Shown: piece by piece, positions 19,328-56,869 of the stretch
Layout of the letters: every line of letters starts with the position of its first letter
Position numbering within the stretch: position 1 is the first letter of the stretch
Source of the DNA: a virus
Strand: one strand, 5' to 3'
Virus record (IMG/VR): IMGVR_UViG_3300007511_000007
Span: 1-64,000 of that record
Length of the DNA stretch: 64,000 nucleotides
The notes under the pieces: generated by a model
Seen by the model: only the letters and a program-made list of their open reading frames with translations
What the model was told of the DNA's origin: nothing
Database searches by the model: none
Program-made: the position numbers and the translations under genes

Positions 19328-20818
19328 TCACTCCTCAAGAAGCATGTCAATAACATTTGGCCCCTTTACCATCTTCCGATATCCACCACGACGCCATTTG
19401 GCAACATACTTTTTGATCCTTTCAGCAACTCGTTTGGGATCGTGTTTGATCTCACTCTCCCATAAGACCAAGCAAGAGATGCCTTGATCCTCATAAAACC
19501 TTTCTACCTCTCTCCTATGGGTAAAACGATCCTTCCCAGTCTTTTGTGGGCCATGCCAGTAGTCACCAAAGATTTCGATCAGAGCACTCGTCCTGAGATC
19601 GTTCAACTTGGTACCATCCCGATAGGCGTCCAACTGTGCCCGTGTCAAGATTATAAAATCTGGATTCCGATTTTGGGAGGTCTCTTCGCTTCCCACCCAA
19701 TAAGACCCATCTCCAGCATACACCACAAATTCTGTGGACAATCCATTTACCTGTTGCTCAAGTTTATTTGGGCTAGTGTGAGTTTGATTTGACCACATGC
19801 TTTGAGGGGGAAAGGGGACACCATACTTTTGTGTCCAAACTTTCTTGATCTTCCTCTTGATCTCCTCACTTTTCGACGGATTATCCACTCCATACTTCTC
19901 CAACCATGTCTTTTGCGCTTTCGCCCGCACCTCTGGGCATTGCTGAGAATGTCTCCCCCCATGATTGGCCAGGTTTGTCTCGTAGGCTTGCTGTTGAATT
20001 GTAGGATCAAGTAATGGGTTCTCTACACCATACTTCTCCATGAATACAGCAGCCAACCTCTCCCGCACTTCCTCAGACTTCATAGGATGCACAACACCCC
20101 ACTTCTCCAAACACACAGCTTTGAACTTTTCTTTAAACTCGTCTGTCTCGAAGTAATGCTCCGATCCATACCTCTCCCTGTTTGTCTCCCTTGTCTTCTC
20201 TTGAATCTCAGGGACTCTCTGAGGACATGTCTCCCCATACTTAGACTCCATACCCTCCTGTGCCCTTTTTGTACCCTCCTGACCCCCCAAAGGGTTCTCA
20301 TGCCCATACTTCACCAGATTCGTAGCTGCACGTTTTCTCTGTACCTCAGGGGCAATCGCAGCATGGTTTACGCCGTACTTCTCTTTGGCAGTCTCTCGGG
20401 ACTTCTCCTTGACCCCCTCATCCTGAAAAACGTTATCCACACCATATCTCTTCTTGACCGTCTTCTTGCGTTTCTCAAGCGTTGTTGAAAGCCTCACGGG
20501 GGCACCCGGAAACTTCATCTTGTACTCGCCCTCAGTCAAACCATGAACCTTCTTCAAATGATCCATCATACGAGTAAACCGGAAATCCCACCCATATTGA
20601 AGACAGACTTTGCATTGGACGTAATCCTGCCCCTCAACCAGCCTCTCTCCAAATAGATGTTTCTTTGAATACTTGTCCCACTTGAAGTATGGCAGTGGAT
20701 CACCAAACTGCTCTTTCCACCCCTCACACTCAGATGTGTGTTCATGAATCTTCTTTGGTGCCATCCTGTGACCACACGCAGGACAACTGATACTGCCACG
20801 ATCTTCATTTCTTGGCAT
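19328..20818 (-). CDS. Putative homing endonuclease: zinc fingers + about 8 'KYGV.N/HP' repeats + Vsr/DUF559-like nuclease
   Basis: CPACG..H, CKVC..HLKKVH; repeated K[YW]G[VEH].. units about 25 aa apart; C-terminal PDFII...IEIFGDYWH...LVLWESEI. Confidence 0.75.
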   Translation of the reverse strand: MPRNEDRGSISCPACGHRMAPKKIHEHTSECEGWKEQFGDPLPYFKWDKYSKKHLFGERLVEGQDYVQCKVCLQYGWDFRFTRMMDHLKKVHGLTEGEYKMKFPGAPVRLSTTLEKRKKTVKKRYGVDNVFQDEGVKEKSRETAKEKYGVNHAAIAPEVQRKRAATNLVKYGHENPLGGQEGTKRAQEGMESKYGETCPQRVPEIQEKTRETNRERYGSEHYFETDEFKEKFKAVCLEKWGVVHPMKSEEVRERLAAVFMEKYGVENPLLDPTIQQQAYETNLANHGGRHSQQCPEVRAKAQKTWLEKYGVDNPSKSEEIKRKIKKVWTQKYGVPFPPQSMWSNQTHTSPNKLEQQVNGLSTEFVVYAGDGSYWVGSEETSQNRNPDFIILTRAQLDAYRDGTKLNDLRTSALIEIFGDYWHGPQKTGKDRFTHRREVERFYEDQGISCLVLWESEIKHDPKRVAERIKKYVAKWRRGGYRKMVKGPNVIDMLLEE

Positions 20819-20855
20819 GAGCAACTCCTCCCATGCGGGAACTCCCGCATGAAAC

Positions 20856-20884
20856 ATGCTACCCAAGCGTATCTAGGTTGTCAA
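20856..20884 (-). promoter_or_regulatory. Sigma70 promoter (TTGACA-N17-TAGCAT) for the endonuclease gene, followed by a hairpin next to the SD
   Basis: Consensus -35 with a 17-nt spacer; inverted repeat CATGCGGG/CCCGCATG at 20832-20851. Confidence 0.7.
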
Positions 20885-20952: not shown

Positions 20953-21591
20953 TTAGAGAAAATTCCGGGGTGAGAGGACGCCCCGGCCCACATTTGCACC
21001 AAAAGCCGATCTAATTCCTACCCCATATTTGGGCTGACGCAATCCACGGATATATTTGACGGTCATCATCTTGGTTTCAGTGGCTTTCTCGAATTGCGTC
21101 TCGGCATTCTGCTTGAGCGACTCGTACTTGGAAGACTTCTCGATGTCCAATGAAACCCCACCAATCGAGTATGAGTTGTGCGCCAAGATCCCATTGGCAA
21201 GAAAGAAGTTCTCGGGGCCGGGAACCGACAGGTCAAAGGTAAACTCCTCAGGGTCAACATCCTGCACACGGGTCACGAGAGGAGCTACGATTTGGTCCTC
21301 AACCTGCGCTATGATGGCCGAACCACATTCAAGCCCCCCTGAAAGGACAGGAACGAGCTTTCTCCCTTCACTGGTGAACAAGCTATGGTCTTCTGTACAA
21401 ACGACGCTCTGGGACTCCCCAACGAGGCTCACCGTCACTTCCACCATTCGTTTCTGGGGGGTATGGTGACGCATGATGTCGGAAACCGAGTGCAGAGAAA
21501 CCTCTCCTGTTTCCCTATCGGCTGCTTTGACCCTGAGTTGGCCCGCAAGAAACGCTTTCTTGATCTCGGCTCGTGTCTGACTATCCAACAT
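20953..21591 (-). CDS. Split-intein C-fragment (IntC, 139 aa) fused to the 73-aa C-extein of a putative neck/head-completion protein
   Basis: Block B VVCTEDHSLF, block F TFDLSVPGPENFFL, block G NGILAHN/S (Asn 21175-21177). No block A at the N-terminus; own SD GGAGG. Confidence 0.85.
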   Translation of the reverse strand: MLDSQTRAEIKKAFLAGQLRVKAADRETGEVSLHSVSDIMRHHTPQKRMVEVTVSLVGESQSVVCTEDHSLFTSEGRKLVPVLSGGLECGSAIIAQVEDQIVAPLVTRVQDVDPEEFTFDLSVPGPENFFLANGILAHNSYSIGGVSLDIEKSSKYESLKQNAETQFEKATETKMMTVKYIRGLRQPKYGVGIRSAFGANVGRGVLSPRNFL

Positions 21592-22567
21592 TGCAAAACC
21601 TCCCACGATCCTCTAAATCCAAAACGGCTTTTCGGATTCGCTTCAAACAGCTTTCGGGATCTTGTCTGATTTCATGTTCCCAAAAGGCGAGCAATGTCCA
21701 CCCTCGGTTTCTCAAATAGGTTGCCTTGCTCTTATCGGTTGTGAGCGTGCCTTTCGGCCCCGTCAATTTACATTCAGGGCAACTGTGCCAATAGCACCCG
21801 TTGATCTCTACCGATAACTTAAGCTCGGGGATCGCCTCATCTATTGAGTAGTACCCAACCTCATGTTCCGTCTCGAATCCCACCAACCCGAACTCAATCA
21901 TTCTCTCCTTGAACTCAAGATGCAACTTTGTTCTCTTCTTCTTGATGTGCCTGCGAGCCTGCTTCGCCATTTCTAAAGACAACTCTTTATTGTCCCGATG
22001 CCAGCCCTCGACAGCTTCTCTGAGATCCCCATTCTCCCATCTCTCTTTGGACTGTTGGCGACGCAACTCTCGATACTCTGGGGTCTTGTTGAGGGCCGTC
22101 AGATGCGCCGCAGCTTGTTCTCGATAGGGGCCAGCCTGCATACGTTTCGACGCTTCTGAGATCTGCTGTCGTGTGATTTCTCCCACCGGGGTCTGGAACC
22201 TCTTTTTGAGCTTCTCAGACTGTGCTTCCTTTTGCCCCTCGGACTTCGCTTTCCGCCCCCTCGTAAACGCACTCATCAACGGGGCCTCGGGGAACTTCCC
22301 CACGTAGTCTTTCAGAGACACCCCCGAACACGCCTTGAGATGCCTTGGTGAAATCATGTTCTGGAAAGCCCCACACTCTTTGCACAGGATGTAGTGCTCC
22401 CCTTCGATCAACCTTTCTTGTAGGTGCTCATAGGAGAAGAAAATCGTAGGACGTTTGCCTTCTTTACGGGAGTGCTCACACACTATTCCTGATTCGACCA
22501 AGGCCGAAAAGGTCTTGGCGTTGAACCCATAGCGCAGGAGCACTTGTCGTTTCGTCAACAGAGTCAC
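21581..22567 (-). CDS. Free-standing Vsr/DUF559-like (homing) endonuclease with zinc finger, inserted between the split-intein halves
   Basis: CKECG..HL zinc finger; IDEAIPELKLSVEINGCYWH ... K..YLRNRGW..L.FWEHEI. GTGA overlap with the upstream stop. Confidence 0.8.
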   Translation of the reverse strand: MTLLTKRQVLLRYGFNAKTFSALVESGIVCEHSRKEGKRPTIFFSYEHLQERLIEGEHYILCKECGAFQNMISPRHLKACSGVSLKDYVGKFPEAPLMSAFTRGRKAKSEGQKEAQSEKLKKRFQTPVGEITRQQISEASKRMQAGPYREQAAAHLTALNKTPEYRELRRQQSKERWENGDLREAVEGWHRDNKELSLEMAKQARRHIKKKRTKLHLEFKERMIEFGLVGFETEHEVGYYSIDEAIPELKLSVEINGCYWHSCPECKLTGPKGTLTTDKSKATYLRNRGWTLLAFWEHEIRQDPESCLKRIRKAVLDLEDRGRFCNVG

Positions 22568-23334
22568 TCTTTACACACCTTGTAAAGCTCCTCAAAGGGG
22601 AGCGTCACTTCTTCTCCATTCGGGAGAGTTACAGTAATCTCTTGATCCCCTCTCACGCTGAACTCGTCCGAAACCCAATTGCTCGCCAGGGCAAAGCAAG
22701 CGTGTACGATTCCACCCCAGATAATCGCGGTTCTCCAAACGGGTTTCATGGAAACGAGCCGGTCGATGGTATTGACTGCTTCCGTCTCGGGCGGGAACAT
22801 ATTGAACCAGTCCAAGGCTCGTTCCAGATATTCCAGAAGTTCTTCATCTCGCCATATCTGGCCGAACACCTGATTGTACTGGCCAATGGTACCTTCATGC
22901 TCTGGTGGTCTGAAATGGTAGAAGGAATCTGGGTCCTGGTCTCGAAGGAGCATTCTGATCTTTGCAATCATGGAAACTTCGGCTGCTGTATACGTTATTG
23001 AGGTAACTGTTCCGGCGGCGACTACGGCGAATTCTTGAACAACTTGTTGATAGGGTGATGAGGTGAGTTCTTTGAATGTCCAACGGATTCGATATGTTCC
23101 TACTGTAGCACCGGAAGGGATCATCAGGGAGCCGTAGTATTCTCCCACAGTGGGATTAATCGGGGTTCTTTGTGCCGCCCCGATCAATACTTCAGACTCG
23201 GGGGGGCCTGGATCTACGTAGTAGAGCGCAAAATAAATCTCGGCGGCATTTGTGGCGGCACCTTGGGTGTTTGTCAGGAATATGTCCAGGTCACCGCGCC
23301 CGAGCGTTTCGCCTTGTGTGAATGCAATAGCCAT
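22564..23334 (-). CDS. Putative neck/head-completion protein N-extein (225 aa) + split-intein N-fragment (IntN, 31 aa)
   Basis: Ends ...NWVSDEF|SVRGDQEITVTLPNGEEVTLPFEELYKVCKE*, an intein block A pattern (S1-V-x-G-D-x-x-I-x-V ... FEELY). N-terminal Ig-like strands, then a helical RMLLRD...ELLEYLERAL region. Confidence 0.75.
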   Translation of the reverse strand: MAIAFTQGETLGRGDLDIFLTNTQGAATNAAEIYFALYYVDPGPPESEVLIGAAQRTPINPTVGEYYGSLMIPSGATVGTYRIRWTFKELTSSPYQQVVQEFAVVAAGTVTSITYTAAEVSMIAKIRMLLRDQDPDSFYHFRPPEHEGTIGQYNQVFGQIWRDEELLEYLERALDWFNMFPPETEAVNTIDRLVSMKPVWRTAIIWGGIVHACFALASNWVSDEFSVRGDQEITVTLPNGEEVTLPFEELYKVCKE

Positions 23335-42677: not shown

Positions 42678-45362
42678 TCAATGATCTCCCTTTTCGGAGA
42701 TAAATTTGCCGAGCCGGATCAGAGTTTGTTGCTCTGAAGACTTGGGCATACGCCCGAAAGCAGCCCGACAAGAACCTAAAAAATGCCTCAACAAAGCGTG
42801 TTTGTCCTGCGTTCCAACCTTGAGGGTCGTGCGATACAGATCCACTGGAACCTGAATCCCCACAGAAGCGTTATACTTTGCCAATTTCTCTATGAACTCT
42901 ATGTCCGAGGACGCCGTGCGGACTAGCGCGAACACTGCCGCCCTATATGCCACATCCCTCCGATCCTGTGCCGCCTGCTTAACCACATTGTCGTTAGGTT
43001 CCGCAGTTGAATCTTCAGGACTCAGATCGGCAACTTCATCCTCACGTAATTGCTCCCGCACCCTTTTCTTGACCTTGTCCAGAACCATCTTCTGGATATC
43101 GTTTTCCAGATCACCGAAAGGATCTCCACCCCCACCACCGTCATCAGCATCGCCGCCCTCATCTTCATCGGGATCACCCCAATCTCCCTTCTTGAGGGTT
43201 TGAAGAACGTTGGCGGCTTTCTGATATTTGTCTTCTTGCCACTGGGCAGGAGGTGATGACAAGACTAGTTCAGCCTGTTTGAGAACTTCGGGGGAAACGT
43301 CCTTTGCTTCAAGGACATTGCGAAGTACGGCTCCGGTGAATGCCGGAACTTCAACCCACGACGCCTCAATGAACTGAACCCCACCATCTTCTTCACTCTC
43401 ATGACCACAAAGCTCTGCGACCCGATGTTTTTGATTCTTGTCATCGTAGAAAGTGCTGCCTTTCATGAAACGAATGTGCTTACACACTTCCGTTTCATCT
43501 GCGGCAACATGGCCGCAGGTCGTACAGATTGTGAAGTTCGTGAAACAGTTATGAACGACGGCACCCTCGACAACATAAGAATGGTCATCTTCGATCCCAA
43601 GGTCATACACCCAACCCTCATAGACACTCGCCTCAGAGGATTTGACCTTGTAAAGGATATAGTCGTCCACAACATTGAGAGTCCCATCAAAGTGTGAACT
43701 TTCGGGGGTCTTGCTTGTGAATTCCCTTAGCTTGGGGGCTTCGGTATTCCCCACTTTGATGAAAAAGGCGGGAAGTTTGCCTGTCTTTTCATCTCGTATC
43801 CCAATCCCATCTACCACCACTCCTGACGGCTGGCGGGGGCTTCCTTTAATTGAGCACTCTAATCGAGAATAAACCCCACAACGACTCAGCACCGTCTGGA
43901 GTTGTGTTGCCAAGGAATAAGACACCGTAGCGGCAGAAATACTGCCCCCACCGTCCTTCACTAAGCAACCATCTCCATTGATCCATGCGCCTACAAGGTG
44001 TCCAAGGATATGTGTCGGCCACGACATGACTTCAGCAGAAATCTTTTTGCCGTGACTGTATTCCCCCGCATGGCGGTAAAACCATGCCACCATTTCTTGC
44101 CCTGAACAGTGGACCGTGCAAGTATTCCTGTCTTCTCTGTCCTGCAACCATGGTGAATTCGCATCCGGGAACTCTCGCTGGAGCAATTCAACGGTCTCTG
44201 CCGCAAACGTATCCTTTTCTTTTAGTCCGAAATGGAACTGAACCTCAACCGGCTTACCTTCTCGTTTGATGTAACAGCCCTCTGCAAGGAAATATCCAAG
44301 CAACCGAGCTTTGCCAATCGACGCACCTTCGGCATTCTCAACGTCGCGGGATCTTGGAAAACAAAGGTAATCCCCAATCTCAATTTCATCAGCCCTGACC
44401 CATTCAGGCTTCCACGATTTGAGCCGCTCCAGATCCTGTTTTGCTTCCTCAGAGTTCTTCGTGGGGTCATTCGGATTGAAAATTCGCATCTGATGCCCAC
44501 GTTTGAATCGTTGCCCCATCCTCCGTGCTGGATCAACGTGGTGTCTCGGATCGATACTCTCCCCACAACCACACCCGCAGATGGAAGCTGGACGGAACAC
44601 TAAGAACTCGTGGTTTACTGTGGCCGTGATTGCAGACGGGAGTCCCACGGCTTCGACGCTTTGAACCTTCCATGCGCTCCGCATCTGATGCTTGTTATCG
44701 ACCCGTTTGGCTTTCCCCGTGTGAGTAATTACCATATCTCCAATCTGGATATCCTCGATAGGAACTCGGGTACCGTTGTCTAACGAAACCTGAGTCCCAG
44801 GGAGAAAACACCCCATCGATAAGGTCGCAACCTTACCAGAGATGATATCCTTGATGAGTTCTTTGTGCTGCCGATCCGTGGCGACCAGAATATCGATGTA
44901 CAACGATGGCCCAATGTCCCTGGCCACAGCATCAATGATCCGACCTTTGCTCAACTCCTCAAGCTGGATGTGTTCGAGGAAGTTATGTCCCCCGACGAAG
45001 CTCTTGTAGGCTTTGAGGAGAACGCCTCGTGTCCACGCATCGTGGTTGTTGTTAACGAACTTGTCACATTCTGTCTTGATCCGGAAATCCGAAAACTTCC
45101 TCATGATCCGCTGACCATCTTCGGTCACAGAACCAAGTTTGGCGTTCGGAACACTTTCCACATCTACAGAAGCAACAATGGTTGCATGAGATAGCAAATA
45201 CTTCGAGGGGTCAAACGGCTGTCCCAGAATCTCCGACGCTTGTTCAATCAGATTTTTGGAGAGGGTCGTTTTGGGTTTTGACGCCTTCCGGACCTTACTC
45301 CAAGACCGTCCTGTGATCTGCGGTTGGGTTACCGACGCGGCTGCGTATTTAATGAAAGGCAT
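42678..45362 (-). CDS. Prohead protease with an intein
   Basis: N.N.DAW, NFLEH, SKGRIIDA, LSMG|C, CTTCGH..CKHI, FIEASWVEVPAF.GA motifs; position before the scaffold. Confidence 0.8.
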   Translation of the reverse strand: MPFIKYAAASVTQPQITGRSWSKVRKASKPKTTLSKNLIEQASEILGQPFDPSKYLLSHATIVASVDVESVPNAKLGSVTEDGQRIMRKFSDFRIKTECDKFVNNNHDAWTRGVLLKAYKSFVGGHNFLEHIQLEELSKGRIIDAVARDIGPSLYIDILVATDRQHKELIKDIISGKVATLSMGCFLPGTQVSLDNGTRVPIEDIQIGDMVITHTGKAKRVDNKHQMRSAWKVQSVEAVGLPSAITATVNHEFLVFRPASICGCGCGESIDPRHHVDPARRMGQRFKRGHQMRIFNPNDPTKNSEEAKQDLERLKSWKPEWVRADEIEIGDYLCFPRSRDVENAEGASIGKARLLGYFLAEGCYIKREGKPVEVQFHFGLKEKDTFAAETVELLQREFPDANSPWLQDREDRNTCTVHCSGQEMVAWFYRHAGEYSHGKKISAEVMSWPTHILGHLVGAWINGDGCLVKDGGGSISAATVSYSLATQLQTVLSRCGVYSRLECSIKGSPRQPSGVVVDGIGIRDEKTGKLPAFFIKVGNTEAPKLREFTSKTPESSHFDGTLNVVDDYILYKVKSSEASVYEGWVYDLGIEDDHSYVVEGAVVHNCFTNFTICTTCGHVAADETEVCKHIRFMKGSTFYDDKNQKHRVAELCGHESEEDGGVQFIEASWVEVPAFTGAVLRNVLEAKDVSPEVLKQAELVLSSPPAQWQEDKYQKAANVLQTLKKGDWGDPDEDEGGDADDGGGGGDPFGDLENDIQKMVLDKVKKRVREQLREDEVADLSPEDSTAEPNDNVVKQAAQDRRDVAYRAAVFALVRTASSDIEFIEKLAKYNASVGIQVPVDLYRTTLKVGTQDKHALLRHFLGSCRAAFGRMPKSSEQQTLIRLGKFISEKGDH
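43548..44810 (-). mobile_element. Intein (421 aa) with LAGLIDADG endonuclease in the prohead protease
   Basis: CFLPGTQV (block A), ATVNHEF (B), LLGYFLAEG and GAWINGDG (C/E), VYDLGIEDDHSYVVEGAVVHN/C (F/G). Confidence 0.9.
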
Positions 45363-53569: not shown

Positions 53570-56500
53570 CTAGAAGCGACCGCCATCATCCTTCGGCGGC
53601 TCATACTCCAAACCCAATTTCTCAGCGATCTGCTTCACAATTTCCGTACCTTCCACAAGTTTCGCAGCAACATCGTTGTAGACGCCCCGCACCATCTCAT
53701 TGAAGGTAGGATCGTTTACTGTCCACAGATCCCGCTCCACCTTCTCACGGGTTCTTTCAGGATCAATGTTCAGAAGCTCAAGAATAATCTCGATGTCCAG
53801 CGACCCTTTCTGGTACAGGTTGAAGAGATGGTCGAACGTGTCGGAGTTGTCCCTCAAAGCCAACCGGGTAAAGGACACAGAGGGGTAGATGACATTCTCG
53901 TCATCATACTCATCAGCCTCAATGAACCCCATACGGCGGCACATTGGTTTGAAAAGTTGCTCCTCAATGAAGTCTTGAAGGATCTCACGCAAGAGCATGT
54001 ATCTGGTATTGATGACCTCAAGATTGATCCGGTCTCCCGAATAGCTGGATTCTCCTGAAAGAAGACTTTCTGTGACACCCAGACCCGAATACATCTGGCG
54101 ATCTGTGCGGTCATAAAGGTTCGACCAATCCGGAACTCGTGTGTCAGACCCCATCTCCTCCCAATTAACCTGGAAGTTGGTGACGATTGAGAAATCGGGG
54201 TCTGCCAGAGCCATATCAACCTGATCCCGCAATTCCTCGATATCGTCCACATCCATACCCTCGGCCCAGACAATTCTGATGGGAGTCATGTGACGAGAAG
54301 CTATCGACGTTTCCGCCTGCCTAATCTTGTCTCGAAAAACGAGTATTCTCATGCAGTTGTGTACCAAAACCTCATGTGTTACTAGAGATTCGTCGTCTTC
54401 TACATCGAAGGAATAAACGATGCCTTTGTAATGCACTGCCTGTGTTTCCTTGATTTTTCTCAACAGCTTCTTTGATCCGGACCAACCAGTGTCTTTGCCC
54501 GCCCGATTCACTGCGGAGAGCTTACCCTCCCCTTTCACTGTCTGCTCGGCCCACTTCTTGACATCCTCGGTGGAGCAACAAGAGAGACCCCAAAAGTCTT
54601 TCTTTCCGTATTGGTATGTCTTCTCTTGCCACCCGGCTGCTGTTTTCCACTTCCGGGACCAATTACGTGCTTGCCGACTCCTTTTTTTAATCTGTGTTTT
54701 GATCCCAACACGATTACAAAGAAGATGGATCTGATGAATCAACAAGCGGTTATCGAGTTGGATTTCAATTTGCGCTGCGTTCTCATCCCAATGCAACCAA
54801 CCATCTGTATCCAGCAATCCCTTAAGGAATGCTAAGATCCGTTCCTCGCCCAAATTGAAGACCCATTCAGGGACACTTTTACCCGAAGCCCCATGTCCAA
54901 ACTCTTCCATGAACCATCGGGCCAAAAGCATATCTCCGATTCTGATTTGTGTGGCCTCCAGGTCCGCTTCACCCACCCCAAACAAGTTCCCTCTGTCCAA
55001 GCCCCCGAATTGACTTAAGACGCCTTCAACTTTTTGTTTGAGTTTCTCATCTCGTTCACCCTTCCCAAAAGTCCATGCCAGACTATGCGTGTTGAGTAGA
55101 GAATCTTTTTGTGTCCAGACACAACCATCCCCCAACCAGGTTCCAACCAGATACATAAAGTCATCTGATATAGAGATCTTGGAAACAGGGGAACTCAAAC
55201 TTTTCGTGACGACTGCTCCTGGGACACGGATTTCTTTTGCTATTGGATGCCAAAGAGTTCCGTTTCCCTTTCCTCGGCCTTTGAACACCTTTTCGGTCTG
55301 CAGGCCAATTTGATTCCGCAGCCGTGAGACACAGGCACGGAGACCTGCATAGGTATGTCCAGTGATCCCCCTAATGGCTTCATAAGAAGCCTCAGTCGGT
55401 TCTTCTAATCCCTTGAGCCAATTGATCAGACGGGTAGACTTCTTGACGGCTTCTATCCGCCCTGCGTCATCCTGCTCATATTCAAAAGAAACAACAAGCT
55501 CTCCCGCTCCTGATGTGTCTGCCTCTATAGCAGTGATTTTCCGCTCCCGTCTCTCAAACCCTTTCTGGTTCTCCCTGAAGCGTCTATCAACTTCAAGTTC
55601 TTTTCCCCGCCACCAGTCGGCCAAATCAATCTCAGTAATCGGATTGGACTCAGGAACCACTTGCGCTTCTTTAACCAAATCGCCTTCTTTGAACTCTTGT
55701 GCTTCAATCCACTCTTCTGTCTCATCTTCGTTGACCCGCAGGATGCGGTGATCGGAAGTTACTGCCAAAGGCCGTTCAATACCCGCCACAGAAAGAATAG
55801 TTATTTCCTCATCTACGGGGCGAGAGCCTTTCTGAGCTTTACGGAATCTACCTTTGTGGGTCAACAGAGAATCCACTTCAACGTCCACGTCTTCTACAGG
55901 AATTTGCTGAATGATACCGTTTCGTTTGACTGTGACCAGAGTGCCGGGTAGTAAGCAACGTTCCAGTAAGGAAGAACCCCGTGGCTCATATTGGGACTTC
56001 TTTCTGCACATGTAGTAGACAAAACTACCCGCGTCCGGATCTGTGTTCAAAGGAATGTTTCGTCCTTGAAGAATTGCAGACGTGACATCCCCCGGCATCG
56101 AATTTACAACCCGAATTGCGTCTCTGTCTCCCATATTGGCTTTCTGGATCACGTCCTTGGTCTTCGAGTCGGCTACCAACTCAATGATCTTCTCGTCCGT
56201 GAACGGGAATGCCTCCATATGAATCTGCTCAGGGGGTAGCACTCTGAGCGCAGTCCATCCTTTGTAGTTCTTCTTGAGCCACCCAACCGCCCGTGCATTG
56301 GCGTCTTCACGCAATTGCCATCGTTCAATTGCTTTGCCGTCTGGGGTCAGTTCCCGAATCGCCTCTTCACGAATCTCTTTCGGCATCTCCGGATTATTGT
56401 CCTCACAGAAAATGAAAACTTCGCCCAGCAAATGGTAGTCGTGGACAATCTCAATCAGACGATGGAGAATCTCATTTTTCTTGCACCACCGCTCACAAAA

Positions 56501-56869
56501 TTCGAGGGCTTTCTCCGCAAGCGTCCGGTTCTTGGCCTTGGGCATCCCCAAACGAAGTTTGGAGAGAGGCAGTTCCGTGTGGAGGTCAATCGCCTGCCCG
56601 ACAAAACAATCAGTTTTGTACCAGAACCGGTAATAGTTCCGTTGCTCGTCAATGCTCTGTGGAAGTTCAAGGAAGTCCGTGGATAACTCAGGAGAATAAA
56701 AGTTCCCCCCGGAACCCCCAACGGTACCACCTACCGTTGGGTAAGCCACCTTTGAGCGCATCGCAGAAGACATGATCTTGCGGGGTTTCCCCGTGGACAC
56801 TTTGGGTCTCGGGGGGATCTTCTTTACCTCTACGGCAGTGTCATTCTGTGCCCGTTCTTCTTTGGTCAT
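53570..56869 (-). CDS. Portal protein with an intein
   Basis: Downstream of the terminase; RFWY..D.FVGQAIDLHTELPLS, GEVF, GLGVTESLLSGE..Y; about 565 aa after splicing. Confidence 0.85.
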   Translation of the reverse strand: MTKEERAQNDTAVEVKKIPPRPKVSTGKPRKIMSSAMRSKVAYPTVGGTVGGSGGNFYSPELSTDFLELPQSIDEQRNYYRFWYKTDCFVGQAIDLHTELPLSKLRLGMPKAKNRTLAEKALEFCERWCKKNEILHRLIEIVHDYHLLGEVFIFCEDNNPEMPKEIREEAIRELTPDGKAIERWQLREDANARAVGWLKKNYKGWTALRVLPPEQIHMEAFPFTDEKIIELVADSKTKDVIQKANMGDRDAIRVVNSMPGDVTSAILQGRNIPLNTDPDAGSFVYYMCRKKSQYEPRGSSLLERCLLPGTLVTVKRNGIIQQIPVEDVDVEVDSLLTHKGRFRKAQKGSRPVDEEITILSVAGIERPLAVTSDHRILRVNEDETEEWIEAQEFKEGDLVKEAQVVPESNPITEIDLADWWRGKELEVDRRFRENQKGFERRERKITAIEADTSGAGELVVSFEYEQDDAGRIEAVKKSTRLINWLKGLEEPTEASYEAIRGITGHTYAGLRACVSRLRNQIGLQTEKVFKGRGKGNGTLWHPIAKEIRVPGAVVTKSLSSPVSKISISDDFMYLVGTWLGDGCVWTQKDSLLNTHSLAWTFGKGERDEKLKQKVEGVLSQFGGLDRGNLFGVGEADLEATQIRIGDMLLARWFMEEFGHGASGKSVPEWVFNLGEERILAFLKGLLDTDGWLHWDENAAQIEIQLDNRLLIHQIHLLCNRVGIKTQIKKRSRQARNWSRKWKTAAGWQEKTYQYGKKDFWGLSCCSTEDVKKWAEQTVKGEGKLSAVNRAGKDTGWSGSKKLLRKIKETQAVHYKGIVYSFDVEDDESLVTHEVLVHNCMRILVFRDKIRQAETSIASRHMTPIRIVWAEGMDVDDIEELRDQVDMALADPDFSIVTNFQVNWEEMGSDTRVPDWSNLYDRTDRQMYSGLGVTESLLSGESSYSGDRINLEVINTRYMLLREILQDFIEEQLFKPMCRRMGFIEADEYDDENVIYPSVSFTRLALRDNSDTFDHLFNLYQKGSLDIEIILELLNIDPERTREKVERDLWTVNDPTFNEMVRGVYNDVAAKLVEGTEIVKQIAEKLGLEYEPPKDDGGRF
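54356..55957 (-). mobile_element. Intein (534 aa) with LAGLIDADG endonuclease in the portal
   Basis: CLLPGTLV, VTSDHRI, LVGTWLGDG and FLKGLLDTDG, VYSFDVEDDESL...VLVHN/C. Confidence 0.9.

Follow-up and report, generated by a model that had tools for sequence, protein, structure and literature searches.

A putative head-to-tail adaptor gene of a huge phage is divided by a split intein with serine nucleophiles, and its product is very probably joined after translation

The adaptor gene of a huge phage, found in the first 64,000 nucleotides (positions 1-64,000, here called the window) of the metagenome-derived, 112-kb IMG/VR record IMGVR_UViG_3300007511_000007, can with good confidence be regarded as a fractured gene. 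It carries an intein of about 170 amino acids, a class 1 mini-intein with serine both as the first residue and as the first residue after the intein (Ser1/Ser+1), at the site DEF-(D/S)YSIGG. The intein is split by a nuclease gene, and the two fragments would be trans-spliced to an adaptor of 298 amino acids. As judged from the sequence, the adaptor protein is thus very probably joined after translation.

The locus consists of three open reading frames (ORFs), and all its features are found on the minus strand. ORF A encodes the N-extein and the N-terminal intein fragment (IntN), ORF B the nuclease, and ORF C the C-terminal intein fragment (IntC) and the C-extein:

22564-23334, minus strand: ORF A, N-extein and IntN, 256 amino acids, ending with a 31-residue tail (22567-22659)
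22660-23334, minus strand: N-extein of the head-to-tail adaptor gene, 225 amino acids; an immunoglobulin (Ig)/macroglobulin-like β-sandwich and the first helices of the adaptor core, ending ...SDEF
22567-22659, minus strand: IntN, 31 amino acids; Ser1 at 22657-22659, followed after the fragment by the stop codon at 22564-22566; strands β1-β2 and helix α-1 of the HINT fold
21581-22567, minus strand: ORF B, putative free-standing homing-endonuclease gene, 328 amino acids, intact; a ROS/MucR-like zinc finger and a DUF559/Vsr-like nuclease
21599-21604, minus strand: Shine-Dalgarno sequence GGGAGG, read from the sequence, 7 nucleotides upstream of the IntC start and inside the 3' end of the nuclease gene
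21175-21591, minus strand: IntC, 139 amino acids; R41-H42 of the NX motif at 21466-21471, block B from T66 to H69 at 21385-21396, block F, and block G with H138-N139, the Asn codon being 21175-21177
20953-21174, minus strand: C-extein, 73 amino acids and the stop codon; Ser+1 at 21172-21174; β-hairpin, long helix and C-terminal arm of the adaptor

The TGA of ORF A and the GTG start codon of ORF B overlap as GTGA, and ORF B is read in a different frame from that of ORFs A and C. ORF C starts at the ATG at 21591 and shares its first 11 nucleotides with the end of ORF B; a GTG at 21606 is listed as an alternative start, but the homologs start at the ATG. A preliminary description of this DNA had proposed the same layout, with a nuclease that overlaps both neighbours in another frame and a Shine-Dalgarno sequence belonging to the IntC gene itself, and both were found as described. 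The three genes appear to be translationally coupled. They are probably also co-transcribed, since a scan for promoters and terminators gave no more sites than in shuffled sequence, and no internal promoter or terminator thus stands out above chance. The predicted length of the spliced protein (225 + 73 = 298 amino acids) is within the size range of the uninterrupted members of the family.

The insertion site and the split intein

A search of a large protein collection gave 859 homologs, and the best 120 of these were classified. Most of them (91 of the best 120) are uninterrupted proteins, mainly of 297-301 amino acids, that read straight over the junction and do not contain the 31-residue tail. 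The junction is DEFD-YSIGG in 77 of the 91, EEFD and DEFS are found in five each, and the rest have E, N or Q before the tyrosine. This agrees with the preliminary description, which had expected intein-free homologs to lack the tail and to read DEF, then S, D or N, then YSIGG. The five uninterrupted DEFS proteins could be scars of precise intein loss. Another 26 of the best 120 homologs end in the N-extein followed by a tail of 31-36 amino acids, the first residue of which is serine in all 26; the layout with an IntN tail is shared by at least 26 other assemblies.

Two phage relatives were identified using tblastn. Tunturiibacter phage Tunturi_5 encodes an uninterrupted protein, gp319, with DQF-DYSLNG at the site, and the 485-kb uncultured phage LR745208 has EEF-DYSIGG. 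The junction is also read across by the uninterrupted IMG/VR loci among L009-L024. Compared with the uninterrupted homolog P0008, the N-extein of the window shows 70% identity (to residues 1-227) and the C-extein 71% (to residues 217-298); the C-extein is also 76% identical to the LR745208 sequence. The intein is positioned at the start of a β-hairpin, where the family has one of its best-conserved motifs (with E, F, Y, GG, S and L invariant). Homing elements typically target conserved motifs.

The position 1 nucleophile of the window intein is a serine directly after ...DEF, as in other class 1 inteins in its placement, and IntC ends in ...AHN followed by Ser+1. Block B (N3) is TEDH, residues 66-69 of IntC, and upstream of it lies the NX motif, R41-H42. 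An Arg or Lys before the NX histidine has been described as a signature of Ser1 inteins (Pasch et al., 2023; PMC10189870). Cysteine residues without a catalytic role are present in both IntN and IntC, so the intein is not fully cysteine-free. IntN is acidic, with seven Asp/Glu and three Lys/Arg residues, as had been counted earlier. In alignments of IntC to PDB inteins of solved structure, the match begins only near residue 50 of the latter, as would be expected if the first strands are missing.

That the two halves constitute one split intein, as proposed in the preliminary description, is borne out by inteins that are found uninterrupted (in cis) at the same site in the IMG/VR loci L011 (165 amino acids) and L027 (172 amino acids). 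These are colinear with the 31 residues of IntN plus the 139 of IntC, IntN corresponding to their residues 1-31, and they score 56 and 53 bits, respectively, against Pfam Intein_splicing. The completeness of the HINT fold was judged on the L011 intein (L011:5679-6173), a natural cis homolog and the only one that was folded, rather than on the two chains of the window. The model displays a complete HINT fold with a predicted local distance difference test score (pLDDT) of 94 and a predicted template modelling score of 0.87. Using Foldseek it matched the solved mini-inteins RadA, CDC21-1, TFIIB, DnaB and Aes123 PolB1 with E-values from 1e-10 to 1e-9 and template modelling (TM) scores of 0.73-0.83 (RadA: E 1e-10, TM 0.78).

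The L011 model starts with two strands, followed by helix α-1 (residues 22-30), a loop (31-36) with the lowest pLDDT, and a second helix. Since α-1 spans residues 22-30 and the break in the window falls after residue 31, the model places the split at the S2 atypical split site, which follows helix α-1 (site as defined in PMC13014065, where short IntN fragments range from 15 to 37 amino acids).

A search using IntC alone gave 54 proteins, and 50 of these have Ser (47) or Thr (3) between HN and YSIGG. Judged from these sequences, the intein allele is essentially specific for the YSIGG site, as 50 of the 54 homologs run into this motif. In the 42 full IntC sequences the NX histidine with Arg/Lys before it, block B T..DHS, block F, and block G AHN are at least 95% conserved, while the overall identity of IntC goes down to about 36-50%. 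In two of the IntC homologs, P0152 and P0167, the C-terminal motif of the DUF559 nuclease is fused in frame at the start of IntC; these fusions may have remained from a nuclease or may reflect alternative gene calling.

The locus L026 encodes both intein halves as separate genes with spacers of 80-90 nucleotides and no nuclease gene. The split intein is thus maintained for its own sake, since both halves are kept in L026 without a nuclease. Comparison of L025 and L026 gave ratios of non-synonymous to synonymous substitution rates of 0.07 for IntN and 0.15 for IntC, which suggest purifying selection on the intein halves, although synonymous sites are saturated and the values are rough. The exteins of these two loci are 83-95% identical and IntN 81%, but IntC only 47%, and this suggests that the IntC part has been exchanged by recombination between otherwise close phages.

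The host protein and the nuclease genes

The host protein is, with moderate to high confidence, a head-to-tail adaptor that would bind the portal. This identification is based on matches of a predicted fold, a weak PHROG match, and the annotation of a relative. In the AlphaFold model of P0008, made from 62 aligned sequences and with a mean pLDDT of 73, residues 1-107 form an Ig/macroglobulin-like sandwich at the N-terminus, and residues 116-283 form a helical core that includes a β-hairpin. When the core was aligned to solved structures using VIA-align, at least 15 head-to-tail adaptor chains were found with Z-scores from 10.9 to 7.4. The phages represented are cyanophage A4, Pa223, SU10, GP4, B2, KHP30, Moo19, VP1, P-SCSP1u, Carin-1, HRP29, Kp7 and DEV, together with the neck of phage 812, the Mu neck subunit and the adaptor of the gene transfer agent (GTA). 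The fold thus fits the neck-like host that the preliminary description had suggested. PHROG 17327, "head-tail connector", gave a weak match (E 1.2e-3), and Tunturi_5 gp319 is annotated as a head-tail connector protein. A Foldseek search of the P0008 model against PDB gave Ig-like matches for the N-terminal domain and no clear match for the core. Neither Pfam nor PHROGs gave anything for the N-extein ORF of the window, the host family has no Pfam match, and its profile found nothing meaningful among PDB sequences (lipoprotein lipase at E 0.3 only).

The solved adaptors from A4 (9k09_d), Pa223 (9nwi_A), SU10 (7z47_A), DEV (9bgm_b), Mu (5ydn) and GTA (6tba) are all among those that match residues 116-283 of P0008 at Z 7.4-10.9, but they have no significant sequence match to the family, and the family protein has the N-terminal Ig/macroglobulin-like domain in addition. 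Beyond the conserved ...SPRxF end, roughly one in ten of the uninterrupted adaptor homologs continues with an additional, hydrophobic stretch of about 20-30 amino acids at the C-terminus. These include P0009, P0010, P0011, P0015, P0025, P0026 and others (317-328 amino acids), as well as L009, L010, L013, L017, and L018.

The protein encoded by ORF B matches Pfam DUF559 with 33.7 bits (cut-off 20.6) and PHROG 3339, "homing endonuclease", with an E-value of 1.4e-10; the Vsr profile gave only E 0.046. Among PDB sequences it matched the DUF559 structure 3hrl (E 2e-3) and I-Bth0305I (3r3p, E 0.16). The part that matches DUF559 above the cut-off is the C-terminal nuclease domain, which aligns weakly to 3r3p, of the Vsr-like (EDxHD) homing endonucleases, over the ...E-x-N-G-x-Y-W... 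core. It differs from I-Bth0305I in that this match is weak and in its additional N-terminal ROS/MucR-like zinc finger, which is clearer in the orthologs. Orthologs of ORF B are found in the same position in L022 and L025.

A second free-standing gene of this type, a putative homing-endonuclease gene encoding 512 amino acids, is located directly downstream of the adaptor gene (window 19328-20866, minus strand). In the protein a zinc finger is combined with DUF7487 repeats (Pfam E 6e-46) and a C-terminus that is Vsr-like, and both the zinc-finger module and the nuclease are found again in the intein-associated ORF B protein. Its orthologs are found at the same place in LR745208, L011, L022 and L027.

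Relatives with a second intein site

In relatives the adaptor gene contains a second intein allele, at a conserved LRDQ-xPD(K/R)xYHF site (site 1; the site used in the window is site 2). This intein, which starts with Cys1 and has either Cys or Ser at +1, aligns colinearly with the site-2 intein, and the two are split at equivalent positions. The intervening gene is, however, not Vsr-like; it encodes a TnsA-like PD-(D/E)xK nuclease (Pfam PF08722, E 1.2e-9 in LR745208). The forms found are:

P0007: cis intein at site 1 and an IntN tail at site 2
LR745208: fractured at site 1 only
The window and L022: fractured at site 2 only
L011: cis intein at site 2 only
L027: fractured at site 1 with a decayed nuclease gene, and cis intein at site 2
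L025 (3208-6987): fractured at both sites with both nucleases, five genes
L026 (5001-7117): split at both sites without nucleases, three genes

In L025 and L026 the adaptor gene is in three pieces, and the middle piece has an IntC at its N-terminus and an IntN at its C-terminus. As it carries both kinds of ends, the two related inteins would have to be orthogonal; otherwise the middle piece would cyclise. On balance, the evidence leans towards a clade whose adaptor gene hosts two paralogous mini-inteins, one Cys1 with a TnsA-like nuclease and one Ser1 with a Vsr-like nuclease, both split at the same structural position and giving an adaptor made from three polypeptides in some relatives.

Thirteen of the 19 IMG/VR loci are uninterrupted, and L016 ends at the contig edge before site 2. 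On a FastTree tree of the N-exteins the fractured state requires at least 15 changes, nine of them forced by well-supported branches, compared to about 22 for shuffled labels; the fractured P0006 was labelled uninterrupted and P0007 left out, so this count is approximate. The element is patchily distributed, as expected for a mobile element. This is consistent with repeated homing or loss, between which the tree does not discriminate.

Other inteins are found in the same record. The window contains an ORF of 1099 amino acids (53570-56869, minus strand) with a weak Portal_Mu match and a contiguous intein containing a LAGLIDADG endonuclease domain; judged from its sequence, this would be a second intein-carrying virion gene of the phage. 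A maxi-intein of the canonical LAGLIDADG type (Pfam Intein_splicing 40.5 bits, LAGLIDADG_3) lies in another ORF, of 894 amino acids (42678-45362, minus strand), and a further intein match is found beyond the window, at 89569-90801 of the record.

A model for the fractured adaptor gene and its implications

The following course of events may be proposed. A Vsr/DUF559-type homing-endonuclease gene would have landed in the coding sequence of the intein, in the loop after helix α-1, and thereby split it into an IntN of 31 and an IntC of 139 amino acids. Association of IntN with IntC would bring the two adaptor fragments together and complete the HINT fold. Ser1 would then form the first oxyester, aided by the histidines of NX and block B, and be followed by the attack of Ser+1, cyclisation of Asn139, and an O-to-N shift that leaves a peptide bond in ...DEF-SYSIGG... 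The spliced adaptor of 298 amino acids would join the portal in the neck. Spread of the element would be the only role of the nuclease: in co-infections it would cut alleles that lack the intein, so that the whole cassette spreads.

Some observations weigh against this model. Splicing is deduced from sequence alone. The IntC of the window barely reaches the Pfam cut-off (Intein_splicing, PF14890, 35.8 bits, E 8.9e-9, exactly at the cut-off), and IntN alone has no significant match to any Pfam family. The saturation of synonymous sites makes the substitution ratios mostly unusable. The adaptor assignment depends on Z 8-11 matches to a partly helical model with pLDDT 73, a PHROG match at E 1.2e-3, and the annotation of one relative. 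Finally, the record is only about 21% complete according to CheckV, so that an intact adaptor copy might be present elsewhere in the genome.

The last point speaks for the idea that the locus is a decaying pseudogene, where a selfish insertion has inactivated the adaptor and a gene outside the 112-kb record has taken over its function. About a fifth of the genome (~21%) is in the record, and the nuclease gene has decayed in the relative L027, but the three ORFs of the window are intact with coupled starts and the exteins are 57-73% identical to their homologs with no frame breaks. The same layout is found in at least 26 assemblies with the intein residues conserved, and there is no second adaptor copy within the 112-kb record. 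Decay is therefore improbable. It is somewhat less so, though still unlikely, that the intein halves serve as a non-covalent dimerisation module, the adaptor being present as two polypeptides held together by a HINT domain that does not splice, an arrangement that has been suggested for certain genes split by endonucleases. A fragmented phage ribonucleotide reductase that is reported to be assembled by interaction domains (PMC3045599) provides a precedent. Dimerisation alone would, however, not need the catalytic residues (Ser1, the NX His, the block B Thr/His, His-Asn, and Ser/Thr+1) that are kept in nearly all members, and a domain of 170 amino acids that stayed at the hairpin of the core would probably collide with the ring.

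As the record is derived from a metagenome, it might also be asked if the three ORFs are an assembly or sequencing artefact that hides an unbroken maxi-intein, with the nuclease as a domain in the same frame. There are 17 stop codons between ORFs A and C in their common frame, which means that a single indel cannot fuse them, and the nuclease is encoded in another frame with its own start. The three-ORF layout is moreover common to independent assemblies, and L026, which is free of the nuclease, still has separate IntN and IntC genes. An artefact is accordingly very hard to credit, and a fractured gene with trans-splicing of its products is preferred here.

Fractured genes were described by Dassa, London, Stoddard, Schueler-Furman and Pietrokovski (2009; PMC2677866), who reported 26 loci, half of them with Vsr-like nucleases, in genes for DNA synthesis and repair enzymes, terminase, and one protein of unknown kind. 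The adaptor locus resembles these in that two ORFs make up the host gene, a split intein lies at the break, and a free-standing endonuclease gene is placed between the ORFs with overlapping frames, an arrangement found mainly in phages. It differs in that its host is a virion head-to-tail adaptor. The literature search found no paper on a split intein or fractured gene in a phage adaptor or neck gene, which holds only for the literature searched.

A natural atypically split Ser1/Ser+1 intein is also known, PolB16 OarG (Pasch et al., 2023; PMC10189870), which a paper of 2026 describes as still the only natural atypically split intein known to be cysteine-less (PMC13014065). It shares with the window intein the natural atypical split, the oxyester chemistry expected from Ser1/Ser+1, the [R/K]-His of NX, and non-catalytic cysteines. 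PolB16 is, however, found in a PolB gene and is split after β2 with an IntN of 15 amino acids, while the window intein is found in a structural gene and is split at S2 with an IntN of 31 amino acids. The S1 site (after β2) is used by PolB16 and VidaL, and S2 (after α-1) by AceL TerL and GOS TerL (PMC13014065). The two latter resemble the window intein in their split after α-1, their IntN of 25-37 amino acids, and a host gene related to phage morphogenesis (terminase), but they are cysteine-dependent, while the window intein has serine at both nucleophile positions. Of the features that the preliminary description had put forward as unusual, the Vsr-type nuclease within a fractured gene and the Ser1/Ser+1 atypical split were already known, from the 2009 loci and from PolB16, respectively. 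New are the virion protein as host, the S2 split in combination with serine chemistry and, in relatives, the paralogous split intein with Cys1 at a different site in the gene, by which genes in three pieces arise with or without nucleases.

Natural cysteine-independent split inteins with a short N-fragment are stated to be lacking apart from PolB16 (PMC13014065). The natural variants in the adaptor intein family number at least 26 for IntN, of 31-36 amino acids, and at least 50 for IntC, and these may be of use to intein engineering. If the adaptor gene of this clade does host two paralogous split inteins, the window intein would belong to the first natural family of S2-split Ser1/Ser(Thr)+1 inteins, with dozens of variants, and the two inteins would make up a natural orthogonal pair for tandem trans-splicing. 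In one gene family, two sites are found with the intein in cis, fractured, fractured with a decayed nuclease, and split with no nuclease, and these forms constitute a compact natural series for the origin of split inteins. For the phages, the adaptor gene would extend fractured genes from the enzymes of DNA metabolism to a structural protein of the virion, and assembly of the particle would then, as the preliminary description also proposed, depend on protein trans-splicing.

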